From: Podarcis vaucheri
Taxonomy: Eukaryota
DNA: 64,000 nucleotides
Assembly: GCA_965113315.1 (NCBI GenBank)
Contig: OZ220365.1
Strand: one strand, 5' to 3'
Within the stretch, counting starts at the first letter, position 1. Each line of letters begins with the position of its first letter. Below are positions 3,555 to 60,147 of this stretch, piece by piece. A program made the position numbers and the translations under genes. The notes under the pieces were generated by a model. The model was not told the origin of the DNA. It did no database searches and saw nothing but the letters and a program-made list of their open reading frames with translations.

Positions 3555-4323
3555 CATCATTAATCCAGAGTTTTGTCTAATTATTGACTATATAGGCATA
3601 AGACTGTAAATGCAAGGAAGAAAGATTTATTATTTCTTTTCACTGCATTTGAGCAGGATGGGGGGCACAAGTGAACCAGAACTCAAAACAACAGGTTTCT
3701 AAAAACGTTTCTGGGCACAATAGTTTGTTTGTTTTTTTACTATAATTTTGATGTGAAGTTTTTGTAAAACACCAGTTTTTCAGGGACATGCAATTTTTTT
3801 TGTGTGCCCTAGGCTCCTTGGGGAGAAAGGGTGGAATGTAAATTCAACAAATAAAGCAGGGAATCGCACAAAATTGATTTTGTTATTAAGTTGCACAGTA
3901 CAATAACATGCTATAAATTACATGCCAACTTTACACAATTCATGTGATAGTTTCGGAACTTTCAATGAGATAAGACGTCAAAAATGAACACCATAAAAAG
4001 GCATGCCTTATATGTCCTACAAAGGTGCAAAAAAATGCTCTTTGCCAAGCGGCTGGCTTGGGACATCCAGTATACAGAATGCAGAGAGGAAGCTTATTAA
4101 TCTTTCTAAGCCTTTGGAGAACCAGGAAGGTGTGTTTGTAAGGTGGGGAAAATGCATTGTGAGCATATTCAAATTCATGCTCTGCATTTTAGTAGTAACA
4201 CTTTAAAAAAAAAAAAGCAGTGCCAGATGGACAAATTTGCATCTCTTTTGTTGTTTAATTTGTATGCTATTTCCAAACTGATGAAACCATTTGCTATTAG
4301 CAAAGAACTGCCAACATGTATAC

Positions 4324-4577
4324 CATGGGTAGGTAGGCAAACTAAGGCCCGGGGCCGGATCCAGCCCAATAGCGTTCTAAATCCGGCCCAAGGACAGTCC
4401 AGGAATCAGAGTGTTTTTACATGAGCAAAATGTGTGCTTTTATTTAAAATGCATCTCTGGGTTATTTGTGGGGCATAGGAATTCGTTCATTCCCCCCCTC
4501 CCAAATATAGTCCGGGCCCCCACAAGGTCTGAGGGACAGTGGACCAGCCCCCTGCTGAAAAAGTCTGCTGACCCCTG
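4324..4577. mobile_element. hAT-like MITE
   Basis: CATGGGTAGG...GCTGACCCCTG; inverted copy at 39660-39911. Confidence 0.8.
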
Positions 4578-5472
4578 AATACCTTTCCTTCTTCCATTCC
4601 TCCTTCCCATTCCCAAGATCTGGACACCTGTTTGCCTTTTTTTTTTAATCCAAAAGCAAAAATTCTCTGACATACTACTTTCTGGTTTATGATACAACCG
4701 CCATGCAGATTTTCAGAGTCCGTTTTTATCACTTTGATTAGCAAGGCCAAGAAACTTTGCTATAATTAGTCTTTATTATACTGGACTTCCAAATTAGCAT
4801 CCACCTAGTTGCCTGAGGCATTGAAAAAGTTGCCTGCAGGCAACACAGCAGGAAAATTCAAAAAAGGCAGAGCTGGGATTCAGAAAGCCATGCAGCCCAT
4901 TTGAAGTGTTTTGGGCTTATGTTTCCCAAACAACAACTCCCTAACTCCAACACAACATGGCAAATCACTTCTTGGACTGGAGATTTTCCAAAGCAGCTTA
5001 TGATAAGACATGGGGTCTTCTACTCAATGACAAAACATTGACAAATCAATTGAAAAATAAAGCACACATGTCCAAAATTCCCCAGTATGTGTAACGTAAA
5101 GCTTTAGATTCCATTCAAATTCCCCTTCCCTCCCTGCACAATTCAGTTGACTTTACGCAATCAATAGCCAAGCCGCCTTATAGTTTGCCATCTAATTTAA
5201 GGCAGCCTACCAAAGGAGAGGCCACAGTGCCTTAGAGCTCAACCCAATTCACATACCCATCTTCAATCACCTAAACCTGCGTCAAGTAGGGGGATGACTT
5301 CCCCTCCCAACCTATAGCTCTAATGAAAATCAAGCCAAAATCATAGACTTGCTCTATCAATTACATATTTAGGATACACTTGGGCACAGTGACAGTCATA
5401 GAAGAAATTACATTGGTGCATTTTTGGTAGGGGTTGTATCCAGATTACTATTATGCTACTACAACTACTAAA

Positions 5473-5826
5473 TGGTGGCACTATGGTCTAAACCACTGAG
5501 CCTAGGGCTTGCTGATCTGAAGGTCGGCGGTTCGAATCCCCACAACGGGGTGAGCTCCCATCGTCTGGTCCCAGCTCCTGCCCACCTAACAGTTCAAAAG
5601 AACGTCAAAGTGCAAGTAGATAAATAGGTACCGCTCCGGTGGGAAGGTAAACAGTGTTTCCGTGTACTGCTCTGGCTCACCAGAAGCAGGTTAGTTATGC
5701 TGGCCACATGACCCGGAAGCTGTCTGCGGACAAACGCCGGCTCCCTCGGCTTATAAAGCGAGATGGGCGCCGCAACACCAGAGTCGTTCACGACTGGACC
5801 TAATGGCCAGGGGTCCCTTTACCTTT
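5473..5826 (+). mobile_element. Sauria SINE, near full length
   Basis: B box GGTTCGAATCC, body AAATAGGTACCGCTCC, tail GGGGTCCCTTTACCTTTA. Confidence 0.9.
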
Positions 5827-5832
5827 ACTTCT

Positions 5833-6030
5833 AAAGGTAAACGGCATTTCCGTGCGCTCTGGTTTCCGTCACGGTGTTCCGTTGCGCCAGAAGCGGTTTA
5901 GTCCTGCTGGCCACATGACCCAAAAAGCTGTCTATGGACAAACGCCGGCTCCCTCAGTCTGAAAGCAATGAACGCCCCAACCCATAGTCGCCTTTGACTG
6001 GACTTAGCCATCCAGGGGTCCTTTACCTTT
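5833..6030 (+). mobile_element. Sauria SINE 3' half (variant subfamily), tandem to previous copy
   Basis: AAGGTAAACGGC...GGGGTCCTTTACCTTT with a longer internal segment. Confidence 0.8.
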
Positions 6031-7082
6031 ATCATTATTACTACTAGTACTATTAAGCATCTGCTCCATTTTCCAGCTGCTTTGCCACATGTATCAACCA
6101 CCAAGAGATTAGCAAAACCTAAAACCAGTTATAATTAGGACCATTAAATCTTAATTTTCCACATTCTTGTTTTTCCTGGCTCAACAGCAGCAGTGGAAAA
6201 CCTGATTTAATCTTTTTAGAAGGTGTCTTTAAAACATCAACTCTTGGAATAGCCACAGTTATTATACCACCAGACTTCCCTCAAGATACGTGGAACGGCT
6301 TGCCAGATTCCGTATGTTGAATGTAAACATTTCCTCAGCTCTAATTCTTATTTTAGCAGTAACTTCCTACTGCCTTTTGCTAAACTTATTAGCTGTTAGT
6401 AAAGACACACACATCCTTCTAAAATAAGATAGGTCATTTTTATGAATGAACTTTTAGGACAGGTCTACTAAAGTATTTCCATTGGTTCCTTTGCATTCCT
6501 TCCATTGTTTCCTGGTTATAATGTTTGTTTTCTCTTCAGTATTTCACCTAATTGAAAACCGCTGGCTTAGTTTATCTGCCACTCAACAACCATAAGATGA
6601 TGGCCAATTCTAACAGCTAATCATGAGACTGTTTTGATGGACCATTATTTGTAGATCTTTTTCCCCAACATCCAAACATATCTACATAAAGAACACCCAA
6701 CTGAGAAGACAGTTACTTTCAAACTGTGATTAGGAAAGCCATAAGATTACTTGGAATCTCAGGGGCTCCTTCAGTGATGAAGCCAATGCCAGTGGACAAG
6801 TTTCTGTGAAAAGGTATCTTGCTCACAGCAGCCATGGGAGAGCACTGGGAATTTTAGGTCACACTCAGAAGCACACAAGACCCCAAAAGGTGACCAATTC
6901 CCCACACAAACTGAGTGGAACATCCTACAGCAGACCGTCAGGATTTTTCAGAGTAAGTTAATGAACAATTTCCTGACATCTTAAAACCCTTGAACCACGG
7001 GTACCGTACATTGAGGAATTTCTATGAGATTACCCTGCTAACCCAGTATTGATTTAGGAATACTTGAATGAAGTCCATGCTA

Positions 7083-27200: not shown

Positions 27201-30200
27201 AGCTTTCATTGCTTTCTTCCACCTACAATAATGGGCTAACCTCAAGAGTTAGAGGAAATTAACTTGGAGATCAGAATCAAACTAATTCCTAAGGGATGTG
27301 GGGCAGTGGTGGTGGGAACCTGGGCAACCAATGTGGACTTGGGGGGGGCACCTCACCATAACACAGCACCAATAATGAAACCCATGGCCAGCAGCACTGC
27401 CTGGGAATGCACCCCAAATGCTGACCTGGAAGCCCTCTTACAGTTGCAAAAACATAAGCATAGGAGGAGGATTGGGGCCCGACTGCAACACGTCTGCATT
27501 CAGAAGACAGCTGGCAACACTGCCAAGGAAGAGAATGGGAAGGACAGAGAGAATGGAGAATCACTGAGCCTTTACATCTTACAAAACTGGTTAGCTCTTC
27601 AGGAAATCAAGGTTATCTTGGTGATGTTCTGTACAACTATTGCTATAACCAAATCTGAAATGTTAAGAGGAATGAAATAATGGACTTAACTTTATTTACT
27701 TTAGTTTGCAAGGAGAAAGAACTTTTGTTCCTTGATCTAAGAAGTTGGATTAAAGATTCAAGTTATGCATCGCCCTATATGATACACAATGGGCATACTA
27801 CTATGAAATGTAAAATTGGAATTTGCATAAGGGGTGAAGTAGGGGGAGGAAAGCATTGTGAAAGAGAGAAAAGAAAAACCCAACATGCCTGGGTCAAGCA
27901 GTATAGGAAGGTCCAAACACTATGATTTGCCCTGTGGCCTCCAGCCTCCAGGGATGGCCCTTATTAGAAGAATTAAACAGGTTTTGTGAAGTAGTCACAC
28001 AGACAGGGCTATAAATCATGTAATCAACAGCAGAAGTAATGATGTAGGAACCACAAAAATCTATAAATACTTCCTCAGTTCACTTTGCCTCTGCCTTTAT
28101 AAAGTCAATACTTGCTTAGCCTACAGTTTAGTACTCTTGATAATAATAATTCACAAACTAGATTTCTTTCTTTATTACCTTCGCCATTTCACAGCAATGT
28201 CAAACATATCTCTCCACTGCATCAGCCTGGTTTTTCCATTAATTCGTACTTTCGAGTTCACCCACGTTCTCTGTACAGCTTGCATTACTTCTATCACAGC
28301 TAGCCCCATTGCTGAACAACAAACAGAAGTAGGTTACCAGTGAAGCCCACTCACATTTATACTTGACATCTAAACGTGAGGCAGAAGCTGAAGCATCAAA
28401 ATAGTGCAATTCTATGCATGCCCTTGAGGGACGCGAGTGGCTATATGGGTGAAACCACATAGCCTAGGACTTGCCGATCAGAAGGTCGGCGGCTCGAATC
28501 CCCGCGACAGGGTGAGCTCCTGTTGCTCGGTCCCTGCTCCTGCCAACCTAGCAGTTCAAAAGCACTTCAAAGTGCAGGTAGATAAATAGGTACCGCTCCA
28601 GCAAGAAGGTAAACGGCATTTCCGGGTGCTGCTCTGGTTCGCCAGAAGCGGCTTAGTCACATGACCCGGAAGCTGTACGCCGGTTCCCTCAGCCAATAAA
28701 GTGAGATGAGCGCTGCAACCCCAGAGTCGGTCATGACTGGACCTAATGGTCAGGGGCCCCTTTACCTTTACCTTATGCATGCCCTTACTATGTTCAGTAA
28801 GGCTTACTCTCTAAGTAAGTGAGCATAGAATTGCAGTCTAAGAGATGCAAGTGGATGACTGCATAGGATCTAATATTTAATATCACTGGAGGTTGCTGCC
28901 TCATTAAGTATTCACACTTTACAGTACATAATGGACTGTAATAGTAGTTTTCTTTTATGTATGAATAAGCTGAACTACCATATGAATAGAGCATGTTTTA
29001 TTGCTGACTATCCAATGCTAATCACAGCAAGCGCCATTATACTTTTAATTCCATATTTCAATAAAGTTTTTCCAGTGTACCTCTATGTACTCTCTTGTTT
29101 GGAAGAAATCCAGGGGTCTCATATTGCATTAGGGAACCCAACTGATCAGCAACACATATAATCTCTTGCATTTCGGGTTTATAGTTTTCAAATTTCTGAA
29201 GTAGTACATCCCTTAAAATCACAAATAAAGCCAGGATTAAATATCAAGATGATTTCTTACATAGATTCTATATTAGTAGCAGCCCGTGAGATAGACAAAC
29301 ATTAGAAATATGGTTTAAGATTACCAACCCCTGCCAAGGTTTATTGCAACTTTCCTTTTTATAACTCTATTTGGGCATAAATAAATAAATAAAATTGTCC
29401 ACTAGCACCTTAGAGACCAAATAAGTTTGTTCTGGATATAAGCTTTTGTGTGCATGCACACTTCTTCAGATACACTGAAACAGAAGTCACTAGACCCTTA
29501 TATATAGTGGGAGGGTGGGGTGGGTTTTTTCTCATAAGGGTAGTAGGAGATGGGTGATTGACCCAATGGATATGGTAAACCTGTTGACTGTTAACGACTG
29601 CAATTAGTCCTACAGGAAAACTACTGTGCTATTTCTTTTCTGATTGAGTCTTACTTACTTTGCCAAACCTTTATTAGGCATTGCAAATATAGGCCATCAT
29701 AAAACATCCATATATATATTTATATATACAAATAAACAGGCATGTAAAATATTTAATAACGAGGATTTTTGGTGGAGTTTCTTTCCACTCTAAGAGATAC
29801 TACTGACAAAAACTCAGCCACCCTGGCAGTTACTTCTGGGTTAATGTCAGACCAATAGAATATGATATTTTCATTGTGCCATGATGTTAGACTACCCCAA
29901 AAAAAGAGGATAGCAAGCATTTACATAGCGGTTGTACAATGGACAGTAGAAAATAATACCTTCTACAGTGTCCAGCAAATTCGAAAAACATCCGCAATGT
30001 CTATCATTTCTGGAGATGTTTAAATATCTGCCCTTGATGAAAGCTGAGGGGAAAATATTCAGTCGGGGTAACATAAAGGCTCTGTGTTGGACTGGAATTA
30101 TTAATTTTGTAATATAAGTGACCCTGTTATCTGTTGTATTTAAACCATAGAAGTCATGGGATCTGATGGAGTTCAACAAACATATTGAAAGGTCAAGGAC

Positions 30201-36200: not shown

Positions 36201-39200
36201 CAGACAGATTCTGTAAGGCTATCTTGTTGCAAGAGATCGGGCAAGAGAATAGGCGATCTCCCCCTGCCTCCCAAACTCAGTTCTCTTTAAAGGAGATAGA
36301 TAGAATAGCTTGTAGCTTATAATACATTGCAAATATGACCCTTGAGACTAAGCACCTATCCCAGCTCATTCTCTGCAGGTGCTCAACTGAAAACTAACCT
36401 CAGATATGAAGTAAAGAGTACCTCTGTGTCGGTAAAGTCGTGCGGAGGGTTTTAGCTGAATAGCTTTAGTGAGGTCAGCCAGCGCTTCACTCATTTGACC
36501 CAGAGGAGACAGTATCTGTAAAACCAAGATAATACTTTGAGCAAGATTGTACAAATAATCCTTCATTTTCAAAATGATTTTAGGTAGCAATATGTAATAA
36601 CTATGCACAAAAAATTAATTTTGCGTTGAGTAATTAAACAAGTGCATTATTTACATAAAAAAGTTGTACATTAAAATTGGAGATTGGAGCACATGCATAT
36701 ATTACATTACATCTATTTAACTTTAAAAAGCAGACTAAGTCCTATTAATTTTGTCAGGTATTAAAGGGCTGAAGGAGAAAAAGTGGGTTTGGGTTTTACT
36801 GAAATGACGTATTTCTTCCTACTAAATTTTTTCTAAGCCCATCTGTATAGCTTAAAAGAAAATTGTTGCATTTATTATTACAAGCATCCTTCTATACATT
36901 AACAAAGAAAATGAAGAGTTAATGACATTCACGGACCCTCTGAAGGCTGACAGCTACAAACACTAGTGTAATTATGCTTTTCAATAGAAATAAAATACCG
37001 GTCAACAATAGAAAGTGTCCTTTCATACTGCATCACGGTGTGGTACGCTGGTTTGACATCATCTGATAGGAAGCGCCTACAGAGCATGGTGAATACAGCA
37101 CAAGATATTATGGGCTGTCCCGTGAATCCGCTGGATGAAATAGCGGAAGAACGTTGCCTCAGGAGAGTGAGTAGCTTTGGTATTTTTATTCTATTTTATT
37201 TTTGTCTTAATGTATTGATAGCTGTATATTGATTAACATCAAATCTTAATTCATATATTATTAGGAATATGACCAAGAACTTTCAACAATAAACATATAG
37301 AAACATACAGAAAATAACTGGATAAACAAAATAACAATAAGGTATAGATAAGGTATAGACATCAGAAAATCTTTTAAAAGTGGAAGAAATACCTCTGCTC
37401 GCTGCTCAAACACTTCAGCTTGATCTGGGACCAGACTAATGACTCTGCTCAGCTCAAACAAAGCTAGCTCTGCATTTTTTATATCCTTAAAAATGGGGGG
37501 GGGGGAAATATGTAAGTAACAATGTATGCTTAGTCATAGGGAGGTTATGGTGACAATTTTTAAATGGTACAACACTCAGTGAATCAAAATTCTTGGTTTC
37601 ATCATGGAATATTTTGATGTGTGATAAGAGTCACATACATGCAACATCAGAACAAACAAGGCTAAGTATTCCAGTTACTATGGGACCATCGTGAATCTGC
37701 TATTGCCAGGGCTGGCCTGCCCATGAAGCACCATGAGGCAACTGCCTCAGATGGTAGAAGGGAAATAAAAATCTTTATATTTTATCGTTATTGTAGTTGC
37801 AAAAATAATATGTATCCTAAAAAGCAATCGGAAGTGAAGGGACTGTACAAATAACTTCTGGGTTTGGAATAAGTACATTCCTCTTGAGCAAAAATCATTG
37901 GCTAGAGCAGGGGTTGTCAACCTGGTCCCTACCACCCACTAGTGGGCGTTACAGGATTCTAGGTGGGCAGTAGGGGGTTCTACGGCACAAGCTGAATCCT
38001 CCTTCCATCAAGCACTGGTGGGTGGTAAGGAAATTTTAACATCAATAAAGATACATTAGTGGGCGGTAGGTATAAAAAGGTTGACTACCCGCGGCTAGAG
38101 TGCCATGACCACTGCCGGGGGAACTGCTTCCCTGGAAGTGGAGAGTATGGAGTCATGGAGTTGAATAGAAGGAAACGTCACACAACTGATGTTGTCCACT
38201 AAAAATGTGCAGATTGACAGCAGTGTCTGATCCCAACAATCCTGAAGGAAAAGAGAATCCTTCACACGGCTGTCTAGAACCAACCAATACCAACCCCCGC
38301 CTCATTATTGCAAATCTTCTGTCTTAGGCAAAGTTGCAATTCTAACCGCTTACTGTAAGAAACAAATAGAGGCCCCAGGTTCAGGAGCAGTCTATTCTCT
38401 GAGTACCAGGTGAGGTGACTTTTTTTTGTTCACCTCAAGCACCAAAATGCCTTAGGCCAGCCCTGGTGAATGCATATATATTATGAAATTCATTATCATG
38501 TGCGGCTTTAAAAATTCCTTCCAGTAGCACCTTAAAGACCAACTAAGTTAGTTCTTGGTATGAGCTTTCGTGTGCATGCACACTTCTTCAGATGAAGTGT
38601 GCATGCACACGAAAGCTCATACCAAGAACTAACTTAGTTGGTCTTTAAGGTGCTACTGGAAGGAATTTCTTTATTTTGGCTTTAAAAATGTTATACTCAC
38701 ATGCAGCCCTTTCTTTCCATATGCTATCCCTCGTCCATAAATTGCACTAACAAGCTCTGGTTGCTCCTATTTGAAGCAAAATAAAATAATCTTTAGAAGG
38801 TTCCACTTGTCCTAATAGTGAATGCTACATTCCATCATACATAACCAAAGCCAAAATTCATGCATTTCATCCACATTCATTTGCATTTCTAAGGAGTTCC
38901 TTTGGGCTTCTGCATACAATTAAAGAGCAGCTTGGTGGGCAGTTTTACACAGAAGATGCTTAAAAGGGGAAACTACTATAGGAGTGGAGTGTGTGTGCTC
39001 CTTTAGTCTTTGCACTGTCTCTGTAAACTCCTTATTAACCTCTGCAGTTTTATTACTTTAAAAACCATTGCTCATTTCAGACCTCTTCTTTGCTATACTG
39101 TAGTTGCAAATCTCATTTCATATTCATATATTAAATAATACATTCTGGTACATTCTGGTACATTTCCCACTGCCACTAAAATCAGCTTTAGGTGGCTGTG

Positions 39201-42200
39201 AATTTGAGTAGAAGAATAGTAGCACTATTGAACTCTTTCTCTGCCAGCCATTTTCCCCACTCAAAATCATACATGGACACACATGTCATATCTAGTTTGA
39301 GACTTGCAGCAGTTATGGACTAAGGAATTCAACCTACCAAAAGCTTCCAGCCTGAACTTTTACAATAGTGTAATCATACTGGGCTGTGATTCGGAGTAGA
39401 CATGCCTGCTCGATTATAGTTTGTGAAATTTTCCTATCAAGACCCCAAGAAGTTGCATGTCAAGTTAAGCTAAGTTGCCTCCCCATGTAACATTTCCATA
39501 ACAGTCAAATCCCTCTTCACATCAACCTATATCCTTCTGTTTACATTTTTAACTCTGTTACCTTCAAGGAGTTCTGCCTCAGACCCATTTCCCTTTTATA
39601 GATTCAAGTTTCCATTCCATCCATCCATCTTCAATTATGTTACAGTATATAGGCTAAGCCAGGGGTCAGCTAACTTTTTCAGCAGGGGGCTGGTCCACTG
39701 TCTCTCAGACCTTGTGGGGGGCCAGACTATATTTTTTTTGGGGGGGAATGAACGAATTCCTATGCCCCACAAATAACCCAGAGATACATTTTAGATAAAA
39801 GCACACATTCTACTCATGTAAAAACACACTGATTCCTGGACTGTCTGCGGGCCGGATTTAGAAGGCAATTGGGCCGGATCCAGCCCCTGGGCCTTAGTTT
39901 GTCTACCCATAGGCTACGCAGTTTCTGCCATCTGTCACTCTTCTCTAGGAAGGCAGGTATTCTACCTTGGGGAGTTCTACTATCTAAGTCTAAAACTGCA
40001 ATGTAATAGGAGTGAAAAATCACCTGGAGCATTGTGGAGAAGTGCCGCACAGCTTCATCATAAAGGCCACTGCCAATCAATACATAAGCGAAAGCTGTCA
40101 AAATAGTGTTATGGGTTAGTGTTATGTTATGAATTCCACATTTGCCATGCATATAAGAATTGCTGAATACCTGCCAAAGAGTTTAATTGAGGGGTATGAT
40201 TTCTGAAAAGAGAGTTTTGAATAGAAGTTATTTCATAAGCTATCAAATACAACATAATAATAAGGAAATAGTTTCATTAAAGTATCAACATTTAAAATAT
40301 TCAGTGATTTTTTTCCCCTGTAAAGCGTAGCCCAAGGCTTGAAACCACACTTTGCATCACTGTACACTTTTGGGTAATTTAAAATTTCCACTTGGCAGCA
40401 ATAAGTAACAAAGAAAAACATTCCAATCCCACCCATTTAAATGGTCCCCGATTCAATCTCTGGCATCTATGGGGGTAACTGAAGTGCAAACAGGCAATCT
40501 GGATAAAGCCATAGAAATATTCAATAAAGATATTAACCTAGCTTCTCCACATAGGACTGAGAAAGCCTGGAAAGCCACTCCATCTTAAAGTCTGTGTCTT
40601 TAAGTCTTTAATGTGGTTTCCCATTAAACAGCATCACTACTGCAAGGAGTTTTAGCTGTACAGTGGACCTTCCCTGCCTATACATCCCCTGTGAGCCCTG
40701 TAAATCTGCTCCAGAAGGCAAGTCTATAAACATTTACCTGGGAATAAGTCCCACTGAAGTCAGTGGACTTGCTTCCAAGTAGACATACTTACAACTAGTT
40801 GACTAAAGTACCACTGAAAGCAGAGAAGTCCAGTGTTATGTGTAAATAAAAATGCTCACAGGATAATGACAGGGTGGCAGTGCAATGCCGCTAGACTAGA
40901 AGACCAACTCCAGGATGGATGCTATAAGCAGCTGGAACAAGCAAGATTGGTGACAGGTTAAAAGTGAAGCTGGATTCACATGTGCAGGCCTGTGTTTGTG
41001 TTTCACCTATGTGGTTATCTCTACTATAAAGATAAGATAAAAGTCAAATGGTTAACACATCCAACTGCATGTATGAATCTACCCACAATAATTATTACAT
41101 AAAGACTCAGCATGAGCATAACACTGGAGAATTCAGGTTAAGAGGACAGAATGCAAAAATGAATTATTTTATAAGTGTCAATGGGCAGACTCCAATGTTA
41201 CACAAGCAGCCTTCCAAACCTGTGACAGGAATTTCACCATCCTCCAAAATCTGTCCTCCAGCACACCAACCTTCTAGAGCAGATTTTTCAGGTATGTGGA
41301 GGGCTGCCAGGAAGGCAGGGTGAAGCGGGATGAGGGGACCATGAACTCCCACTGCATAAGTAATAGTCTGGTCCACTCAGACAGGACTGAATACAACCTA
41401 ATGCTCTTCATCTTAATTTTATTCTGTGGACAGTCATGGTCAAGTATTTAAAAATGAATTAGGATTATTAGATCTCAGTACCACTAGTTTCAGAACATTT
41501 TGCAGCACTCATAAGTGATATAATTCAACTATATATAGCTACTACCGATCACCAACCACACACAGAACCTCTTACCTAATTCTTCATTGGTATTGTCATC
41601 ATCTGTGGCAAATGGAAATCTTTTTTGTTCTGCAAGTGACTTTGCTTGACTCTGCAAAACATTTACCAAATTAAACTAATACCACCAAAATAAAAATTGA
41701 GGACATGAACAAACCAAAGTTAAATTAAGTCTCAATGACTTCCCTGCAACAGTGTCAAGCAAAGGCTTAATTCTACCATGGAAATCATGTGACTTAAAAA
41801 TGCTTAGCTAGATTGGGTCCAAAGTGCTTATCACATCAAAATTTAACACCAGATAAAGCAAGAACAGTTGGTTCTAATGGATCTGGAAAATAACATATAT
41901 TCTTTAAAACAAGTTAAAATATTTATAGTTTCAGTGATATTCATAGTTCAAATACTGTTAGCATCTTAACCTCTACAGTCTTCAAACAGTGTATGTAATC
42001 TAATAAATTTGATTTCCTTTCCTTTGGATTGATAAATACATTTCTTAAGTATTATGATCATTGTAATAGATATGTCACTTCAGCAAAAATTCATCAGCAG
42101 TCTCCTTGCTATACACAGTGAACAAATAAACATACCAAAAGTTTTTCAGTATTGAGGGAAAGCAGGGATTCACAAGAGGGAGACCTTTGTAGTTCACAGT

Positions 42201-56887: not shown

Positions 56888-58844
56888 GATGCTTTGTGGG
56901 CTTCATTTGTAAATCTCTTAATGTTGATGTTTATGTAAGAGGCATATTTAAAGTTCTTTTTGAAAAGATTTAAGCAGTGATCCTATACCCACTTACCTGA
57001 GAGTAATGTGATGGAACTTAATTCTGAGTAAGTGCATAAAGAATTGTACTGTTCTTATGTTTCCCTGAAAATGAACTTGACAGCGTTATTACACATGTTT
57101 ACTCAAAAGTAAGCTCTACCTGGGTACATATGAGTGGCGCCTATGTATGATTTAAGTGTGTTTGGAATGTACAGTAAAACTTCATTCTGTGGACGATAGC
57201 ATATTTAATTAGGGCAATGGTAACAGGAGGTAGCTGGAATAGATAATTGTCTCCCAAAATTAATTGTACTTAACTGCCGCATTGGGAAACAATAGCTTGT
57301 ACTTGGAAAGTTATATGCTATTAATTTTTTTCTACCCCAAACCAAGTGGGTTAAGAAGGATGACTTCTGGAGCTCCCCACCCAATGGCTTTGCAGTTCTC
57401 TTCCATGGAATTGTGTTCGTAGAAGCTGAGGCATCTGTTTTATTTATACTTAATTATAAGGTTCAAACAAGAAGGTGGTCTAGGTGAATTTTGGTGTTCA
57501 GTGAGAAGCCCTCTGATATATTTGATAAACTTTGCAGTGAACTCGATGACTCAGAACTAGTAGAGGTATTAGGAATCTGTGTTGATGTTTAATATCCTTA
57601 CTTACCCTTGTTTTTTGGGTAACATTTCTGTACTGCCTTTCATTTCAAAGAATATTTTATTTTGAGAATTTATATGTCACTTGTCATTTCTATGATAAAC
57701 TATCAAGTAGTTACATATAAAAGGTAAAATAATAAAATTCAATTATTAAAACCAAATCAGAAAGCAGAAGGAAAAAAAGGAAAGCCAATACCTGGTCAGA
57801 GGCAGGTTCATCCCATAAGTTTTGCCCCATTGCAGTGTTCTTCTCAAGTGCAGCACTCCCAGCTCTACACTTCTATGAGTCTATGATCTTCTCGCATAGA
57901 CAAGAATGTCAGCTGTTCTCTATTATGCTTAAAGGCAACAAGTAGGCTAAAGACTAAATGTTCCTGGTGGTCCCTGTATCTAGAGTGGCACAGGAATCCT
58001 CTTTTTACCACTGAACTTAAGGGAATTTTTCTGTAGACAGGATATCCACAGCCCATATGACAATCATTTGTGCCCATGCCATTATTTTGTTTTTATTTTT
58101 TATTTAATAACATTTATATTCCACTTGATTGTAAAAAAGAGTGATTTACAAAAAGAATAAAATAATGAAATGTTCACTTTAAAATAGCTAAATGCAACTA
58201 TTTTAAAATGTCAAAAATATTTTTAAACCAATGATAAACTGCCACTTCTAGCCTGTGCCAACAAAATGCATCTTCCCAGCCTCCCATCTGTTGTTCCTCA
58301 GCAGCTTTGAGGACAGAACTCAGTCAGCCCCACGCTGGGCTGGAAACTTTCCATGGCCTACATCTTTGAGAGAACAAAACAGAATATATAAAACAATACA
58401 CAGCACTACTTCTTTTAAAGAAATTAAATAACACAGTGATGACAACAAAGCCGTATAAAAGCAAACAGTAAAAGATCACAACCAGTCATCTCTCTCCTCG
58501 GCGCATAACTGTAAAAGCTTTTGCTGGGATCTAAGAAACAGTTGGTATCCTTCAAGGGACTTGTGATGACCCTGTATAATCTTTAACCTTCAGATATGCT
58601 AACCTGACCTGATGTGCTGTTCAAACTGCTTTTGAAGCTTTGTTCAGTTTCAAAAGCTGTTTCTCAGTGATATGGAGGTGAGCAGGTTTGCTGTTTAAGT
58701 GGGAGGGGGAGTTGAAAGCCCCCATCTTGAAAAATCCCCTCTAAGTAGATGTCAGGAAGAAGGTTATAATCTAGCCACTACGGCTGGGCAATATAAGCTT
58801 TTCAACAATATCGCCAGCCAAACATCAGTTTGTCGATATACCAC

Positions 58845-58914
58845 CCAGTAGCACCTTAAAGACCAACTAAGTTAGTTCTTGGTATGAGCTTTCGTGTGCA
58901 TGCACACTTCTTCA
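58845..58914 (-). mobile_element. 70-bp Penelope-like terminal-repeat insertion with 10-bp TSD
   Basis: GATATACCAC at 58835-58844 and 58915-58924; insert identical to 38521-38590. Confidence 0.8.
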
Positions 58915-58918
58915 GATA
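58880..58918 (-). ncRNA. Minimal type I hammerhead ribozyme motif, intact core
   Basis: - strand UAU-CUGAAGA-A-GUGUG(CAUG)CACAC-GAAA-GC-UC|AUACCA; conserved CUGANGA and GAAA boxes, NUH = CUC. Confidence 0.72.
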
Positions 58919-60147
58919 TACCACGGCACTGAAAAAGCAAGCTGCATTTCAGCTTCTTGAAAGGGTAGCTTTTAGTACCATACCAGAAGCTCCAAGTGTA
59001 AGTGTATTAATCTTACATTCTTTAATATATCCTAACATGTCATTTTAATTACCAATCTCGCAAAGTTTCACTGGATTAATTTAAAATATTCAGCTTGATT
59101 CCCATTAAGTACATTTTAAATCAGAAGTGACTAGGCTGAATGAATTTGAACAAAAAGAGCCATAGACGGAGTTAAAAATATATATTTCTCCTCTTGGAAT
59201 CTTGATACAGCCATTCTGGCTCTGCCGGATTCTAAATGATTCAAAAGGCTCTTGTGTTTAACCAGTCGAAACAGTTTAAGCAATAGCTGGCACAATTCAG
59301 ACAGGCATAATTATTGTTTGTGACAGAGCCTAGCTCCGGAAGTCTAAAATGAACCCATGAATTACTGCACATGGGCCAGTCCTCTCAACTCCACTGAATG
59401 GTTTCTTTGACCCTTGAGGGGTAGCACTATGTGCTTGAACACTGGGCTGATGAGATAAATAAACATTTTTTTGAGGTGAGGGAGGGATCCTGCCCAAAAT
59501 AAAACCTCACAGACTTAAGAGCAGACATGCTATATACAAACAAGAGGTCATAACACAATAAAACATGCATTATTAAATCTTGAAATTTTGACTTTGCAAA
59601 AAGGGACAAGATAGCATTTAGTGTCAAAACACTTTCTCCTTCCAAAATGTTTGCCGAGTGCAATGAAACTTACATCCAAATAAGGGGAAGTGCAGTGAAA
59701 TACTATGCATGACTGCTGAGAAATAATCCTGCTGAGTTTATAAGGATTTACTCCCAAGTATAGGAATTCAGCCTTAGTACATTAATTTGTACTATAGTTA
59801 ACACTGGCCTGTTTTGCATGAAACTCTAAACCAGGAGTGGGGAACCTGTGGGCCTCCTGATGTTGCTGAACTATCAGCCCCAAGCAGCATGACCAACGGT
59901 AGGCAGTGATGAGAGCTGCAGTCCACTAACATCTGGTGGCCTTGCAGAAGAAAATGGGGCCTTCCAGGGCTGTTAGGTCCTTGGGACTCTCCCCAAGCCA
60001 CACCCCTCAACAGCCCTGCTTTGTACCTCCAGTATTTTTCCTGCCTGGGATGTGTCCTTGAACTCTGATGCTTCTTGCTGTCTTAGATTGAAGATTGAGA
60101 TGGATGTGTATAGAAACTAGCCTACTATAAAGGTAAAATTCACATGC

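Follow-up and report, generated by a model that had tools for sequence, protein, structure and literature searches.

The window analysed here is a stretch of 64,000 nucleotides from Podarcis vaucheri (contig OZ220365.1, assembly GCA_965113315.1) that carries the TTC13 gene on its minus strand. A 58-residue exon in the window matches proteins named TTC13, with 100% identity to the lacertid ones, and a tblastn search using a Podarcis TTC13 protein as query returns 22 exon-sized matches in order on this strand. These matches place the fifth coding exon at 38701-38766, confirming an earlier note in which a perfect hairpin had been located just behind the exon 5 donor. A Pfam search with the 22-residue exon 5 gave no match, and the gene is named via the longer exon. 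The hairpin and its surroundings comprise the following features, with element positions numbered from the C of CUGAAGA.

38504-38515, no strand: distal copy of the target-site duplication (TSD), its last 4 nt also paired in the stem
38516-38593, minus strand: left arm, element repeat in sense orientation on the gene strand, positions -2 to about +75/79, with the whole minimal hammerhead core
38587-38593, no strand: loop and joint, part of the left arm, element positions -2 to +4
38594-38677, plus strand: right arm, element repeat in sense orientation on the plus strand, from +5 to the usual tail-less 3' end of the family (~+89)
38669-38677: right-arm bases that are unpaired
38670-38675, minus strand: AATAAA, a candidate signal at intron position +26 made by the antisense of the right arm
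38678-38689, no strand: exon-proximal copy of the TSD, intron positions +12 to +23, single in empty alleles
38701-38766, minus strand: TTC13 coding exon 5, 66 nt, phase 0-0, donor CAT/GTGAGT, placed by tblastn with 22/22 residues identical

A direct check of the window sequence confirms all coordinates previously given for the exact 75-bp arms and the 7-nt loop: segments 38512-38586 and 38594-38668 are reverse complements at 75 of 75 positions and enclose the loop TTCAGAT. The 12-bp TSD, GGCTTTAAAAAT, is present at 38504-38515 and 38678-38689, with 162 bp between the copies. Measured against the tblastn-placed exon 5, the TSD begins at intron position +12 and the stem at +33, as had been stated. 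Because the four left-arm bases at 38512-38515 are also TSD, only 71 bp of the left arm are certainly inserted DNA. Folding, which the earlier note had proposed as a check, does yield the stem, at -156.1 kcal/mol on the gene strand (z -22.6; none of 200 shuffles is as good). The right arm begins 5 nt inside the hammerhead core and reaches 9 nt further than the left arm in element sequence, and the 3' end of the left arm is short and has a 4-nt microhomology with the TSD. The tail of the family (~+90 to +130), which includes the ORF start codon, is missing from both arms.

A 32-mer of the arm has 10,237 exact occurrences in the genome, and the window itself holds two more copies of the arm family. 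At 58833-58922 there is a short minus-strand copy consisting of one arm (about -3 to +73); it is flanked on either side by GATATACCAC, and its 3' end is also unusually short. At 29383-29520, in TTC13 intron 12, an older copy from a related subfamily matches the young arm at 83% and lies in sense orientation on the gene strand. Longer copies of the family end in a GIY-YIG ORF. At one locus, L150, an intact ORF of 910 residues with RVT_1 (E 3e-12) and GIY-YIG (E 3e-5) domains is flanked by the same repeat, which supports the Penelope-like origin proposed previously, although the TTC13 copy itself is without an ORF. L150 is a partial tandem with a pseudo-LTR arrangement, in that the ORF end and the repeat stand upstream of the full ORF and again downstream. 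The linker that connects RT and EN in the L150 protein, CNKPRCQLC, has the form CX4CxxC and matches the CX2-5CxxC criterion, which the accessible part of PMC8557442 assigns to Neptune, as shared with Nematis and absent in Penelope/Poseidon. This linker points to the Neptune or Nematis clade for the arm family and, judged by such sequence features, the 162-bp insert is the 3' repeat of a Neptune-type Penelope-like element (PLE). L150 (G000:C25:3428500-3437500; ORF at 3882-6614 on the plus strand) is a candidate source, and has T80 and a U at the ribozyme cut base, unlike the TTC13 copy. A MITE or foldback DNA transposon was rejected because ends, TSD length (5-16) and centres differ between copies; such transposons have fixed ends, a fixed short TSD and one inherited centre.

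The closest known systems are other PLEs. In the available text of PMC8557442, the EN+ PLE insertion unit has an inverted 5'-truncated copy and an optional 30-40-bp tail at one end. We find an ORF with RT and GIY-YIG domains in the family, a head-to-head inverted, 5'-truncated copy and a 12-bp TSD at the TTC13 locus, and the optional tail in the family but not in the TTC13 copy. As far as the available portions of PMC8557442 and, for Pen2a_Av, PMC3846280 describe it, the EN+ PLE unit resembles the TTC13 copy in its head-to-head inverted terminal repeat and the TSD around the whole unit, and the arm family in its hammerhead within the repeat and its one-arm tail; the TTC13 copy differs in consisting of the last 80-90 bp on both arms, with neither ORF nor tail. 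PAc (Poseidon_Ac) of Anolis carolinensis, in the accessible sections of PMC11167929, shares with the family an A/T-rich target, two 3' end clusters ~35 nt apart and the absence of copies ending at the ribozyme cut. The TTC13 family, however, has the CX4CxxC linker (criterion in the same part of PMC8557442), and the start of its ORF is located in the tail, ~90 nt past the core, rather than at helix II (compared with PAc in those sections of PMC11167929). A non-LTR retrozyme, which the accessible part of bioRxiv 10.64898/2026.07.22.740005 describes as tandem head-to-tail units each with a hammerhead, was rejected for the TTC13 copy since its units are inverted and it has a single core. Head-to-tail arrays of the ~100-bp ribozyme unit do occur at L098 (C1:5631109-5633218, five units), L171, L186 and L064, and these resemble non-LTR retrozymes arising from the same family.

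The frequency of such hairpins was estimated from the first 100 listed matches of the 32-mer, in the first 6.5 Mb of contig C1, a sample in which exact matching favours young copies. These matches form 73 clusters, in which close pairs are head-to-head in 24 cases, tandem in three and tail-to-tail in none. With overlapping loci and a duplicated region removed, 72 clusters remained for classification; our script called 43 of them inverted, and by hand L044 and L112, in which the second match is no inverted arm, were removed and L107 and L092 were split. The hand-cleaned count is 42 head-to-head doublets among 74 insertions, and the TSD is 12 or 13 bp in 22 of the 43 script-called doublets. L102 and L103 (C1:5883835 and C1:5895724) have an identical insertion layout 12 kb apart, likely the result of a local segmental duplication. 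Across the genome, the head-to-head pivot falls at this same place in 314 loci, whose loops measure 3-15 nt. Perfect stems of at least 75 bp, and up to 88 bp, are present in 17 of 49 hairpins measured (48 of the first 50 listed of the 314 loci, plus L003; one, earlier L010, was left out), which extrapolates to about 110 loci. The TTC13 hairpin is therefore typical, and its perfect 75-bp stem is no ground for special interest because such stems are routine in this family. We regard the hairpin as a routine product of a known class, likely without a function of its own.

The TTC13 insertion is real, recent and polymorphic. Single contigs of runs X14, X3 and X2 each carry the empty site, in which 38503 is joined directly to 38678 with one TSD copy, and these contigs bear out the previous suggestion of a very recent insertion with presence/absence polymorphism. 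Run X3 has the same species label as the best-matching run and X2 comes from another species; together, the four runs (X1, X2, X3 and X14) represent at most three samples from two studies. None of the contig rows listed, a minority beside 29,759 further rows, spans a filled junction, and the filled allele thus rests on the assembly. In run X1, the flanks are identical to the window, the left contig ends at 38503 like the empty joins, and the right contig starts exactly at 38678, which could mean a heterozygote. Runs X1 and X14 share one sample label and differ in flank haplotype, X1 being equal to the window and X14 being 9 letters and 4 gaps off; both also contain extra contigs over 38372-38473. 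Other small MITE-like inverted repeats lie in introns 5 and 4, at 37695-37750 with 38370-38477, at 37910-38095 and at 39650-39915.

On the gene strand, the left arm carries a hammerhead core with CUGAAGA at 38591-38585, a palindromic helix II, and GAAA at 38569-38566, the two boxes being at the positions given before. The core is whole in this arm only, and the description of two hammerhead-bearing repeats therefore overstates the case: it holds for the left arm and fails for the right, which starts 5 nt into the core. Helix I is 2 bp long compared to ~4 bp in longer copies, in agreement with its reported shortening. The TTC13 copy thus has the core boxes and helix II of a minimal type I hammerhead but lacks the 4-5 bp helix I and a foldable motif. 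Moreover, the energy of the local hammerhead fold is -7.9 kcal/mol versus -140 kcal/mol for the hairpin, which supports the idea of a ribozyme trapped in the stem; in addition, transcription of the gene reaches the complementary arm before the core-bearing one. The hammerhead of the TTC13 copy is predicted to be inert, and an Rfam search at the gathering score gave no match in the window. The metazoan PLE minimal type I hammerheads in the accessible part of PMC4209133 share the CUGANGA core, long helix II, GAAA, tiny palindromic helix III region and short helix I; relative to these, the TTC13 copy has a 2-bp helix I and a motif paired with its own complement, and neither strand offers a second sense copy with which a dimer could form. 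According to the same source, minimal motifs probably depend on a second copy and cleave poorly; it also reports pairs of hammerheads lying 100-700 bp apart on opposite strands. The plus-strand CAGAUGA, which had been read as a near-ribozyme, is a joint product and just one of 25 joint types among 50 hairpins. An origin of the joint GATGAAG from a CUGAUGA subfamily is unlikely because this variant has only 8 exact genomic copies.

The ends of other family members bear on how the doublets arise. Exactly one arm is tailed in 41 of 42 doublets, whereas about half would be expected if start sites were chosen independently (binomial p 1e-11); single insertions are tailed in 15 cases and tail-less in 14. 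At +80, a variable C/T position, both arms carry the same base in 23 of 24 pairs, counted over pooled sets in which C is over-represented; subfamilies active at different times could also produce this concordance. The 5' end lies from -13 to +18 in 70 of 115 arms, and the interval from +19 to +40 contains no such end; ribozyme cleavage marks were rejected as the source of these ends, none of which lies near +30. Of 86 arms with a core, 49 stop no more than 12 nt upstream of it, 17 at -4 and 15 at -6, and the -4/-6 stops sit about 30 nt behind TATATAG, at TCAGT. This pile-up is likely a transcription start, in which case a TATA box and initiator would precede an RNA whose first base lies 4-7 nt ahead of the ribozyme core. 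An alternative in which a first exon common to the arms is spliced to an acceptor here was rejected, as the 49 short arms have no upstream sequence in common. With regard to a cap-derived G, the base before the arm end is G in 8 of 17 arms at -4 and T in 12 of 15 at -6. Joints with short back-and-forth templated pieces of -9 to +10 are seen in L013, L021, L023, L030, L063, L066, L071, L099 and L108, suggesting repeated template jumps between both cDNA ends. The TTC13 copy breaks the one-tail rule, tail-less doublets being absent from the first sample (0/42). Of the 49 tight hairpins, the script flagged 7 as tail-less; by eye, 5 of these have a decayed, partial or more distant tail, L171 is ambiguous and L188 is the one clear case. 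In L188, the short arm ends at +78 in a microhomology with its TSD, as in the TTC13 copy.

We hold with considerable confidence that the TTC13 locus contains a recent, polymorphic 162-bp PLE insertion composed of two short head-to-head ribozyme-bearing ends, likely made by priming from both cut target strands and likely neutral. Two features of the TTC13 copy count against this reading: the tail is missing from both arms, and the joint and nearly the left end are those of L003, which could mean descent. How PLE inverted insertions form is still called undefined in the accessible text of PMC8557442. For the anole PLE, the available sections of PMC11167929 report a protein that cuts and extends both target strands and is predicted to be a dimer, as well as two RNA start sites bounding the tail and no need for ribozyme cleavage. 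Together with these data, the one-tail rule, the agreement of arms at +80 and the 5' ends suggest a single RNA on which the two strands of a staggered cut both prime, with the cDNAs then joined head to head. In such a reaction, the GIY-YIG domain would cut A/T-rich DNA with a 12-nt stagger, and each target 3' end would prime cDNA synthesis on the element RNA. For the TTC13 copy, one start would be at the usual tail-less +89 and the other ~10-14 nt further in, via AAAT/AUUU pairing. Both cDNAs would then be extended to or near the RNA 5' end, their 3' ends joined at -2/+5 and the gaps filled. On this reading, the stem is perfect because one sequence was copied twice and the insertion is young, not because of selection. 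The more specific proposal that doublets are the record of a dimeric Penelope enzyme priming twice on a single RNA (twin priming), with starts at the tail end and ~35 nt further in, copying to the capped start and joining of the ends, seems to us evenly balanced between right and wrong. No statement of such a one-RNA model for PLEs was found in the literature searched, most subscription papers being outside its reach.

Other routes to the same structure appear less probable. The hairpin might have been copied whole, if reverse transcription of a read-through RNA from an older doublet such as L003 began at the tail-less site and continued in a single pass across the joint until the far arm ended. 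This would account for the missing tail, and the exact 25-nt joint is present at just two loci, the TTC13 copy and L003, whose left-arm ends are a few bases apart at most and whose hairpins differ at one position. That position is +80, however, which is C in the TTC13 copy and T in L003, and 11 of the 25 joint types recur, each being found in two to six of the 50 hairpins. Moreover, the same joint is seen in L002, a differently built insertion; L188, a tail-less doublet of independent origin, has a different joint and a short end of the same microhomology type; and the arms of the TTC13 copy are identical without one-strand A-to-G scars. Given that joints recur, +80 disagrees and editing scars are absent, we consider copying of the whole hairpin improbable. 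Slightly less probable still is an origin of the inverted arm in fold-back with self-priming, either within one cDNA or on an antisense template. Head-to-head palindromic joints are so interpreted for rotifer PLEs in the accessible part of PMC3846280, in which self-priming on an antisense template is proposed for inverted copies, and many joints in the present family are near-palindromic. Nonetheless, the left cDNA cannot account for the additional 9 bases of element sequence in the right arm without a second priming or template, and these bases show that the right arm is no fold-back copy of the left; the one-arm tail of the doublets makes the same demand, and both outer ends match the two 3' end clusters of the family. 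A fold-back artefact of sequencing or assembly might be suspected from the perfection of the inverted repeat and from the contig rows, but would produce a mirrored flank and lack a TSD. At the TTC13 locus, each flank is unique and runs collinearly with the empty alleles, the hairpin ends are asymmetric, and the same form with decayed arms is found in hundreds of relatives, making an artefact very improbable indeed.

A further rival is that the insertion affects TTC13 processing, be it through skipping of exon 5, retention of the intron, premature polyadenylation at the new AATAAA, A-to-I editing or the production of small RNA. The fold predicts that a 75-bp perfect duplex would form in the pre-mRNA 33 nt behind the donor, long duplexes are ADAR and Dicer substrates, and with the insert intron 5 gains an AATAAA (+26) and a weak GT site (+79). 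The insert starts 11 nt behind the donor, however, leaving the donor and the first 11 intron bases unchanged, and fold predictions at three window sizes give an unpaired probability for the donor of 0.52-0.55 with the insert versus 0.36-0.44 without it; the donor is thus not predicted to be masked by the hairpin. In addition, loss of the 66-nt exon 5 would keep the frame, and ~45 insertions would be expected by chance within 50 nt behind a donor, a rough figure derived from ~7,500 insertions and an assumed 200,000 introns. Editing of the stem is plausible, yet would be routine for this PLE family. The search of runs at the locus gave no RNA run among the matches listed. An effect on processing strikes us as improbable, and the insertion is likely neutral for TTC13, as assumed from base rates.

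As one of roughly 4,000 doublets (extrapolated), the hairpin locus matters little by itself. It is a data point on how PLE inverted insertions form, with its value in the family-level record of mechanism, and the filled and empty alleles are a clean system for testing the splicing effect of a perfect hairpin 33 nt behind a donor. The family statistics, namely one tail per doublet, agreement at +80 and 5' ends behind a TATA box and initiator, yield a sharply defined prediction for the in vitro system that already exists. If true, twin priming would give one model for both the inverted repeats and the one-sided tail of PLEs, and perfect dsRNA hairpins, polymorphic and numbering in the thousands, would be accumulating in lacertid introns, the TTC13 one lying close enough to a donor for a splicing effect to be tested.
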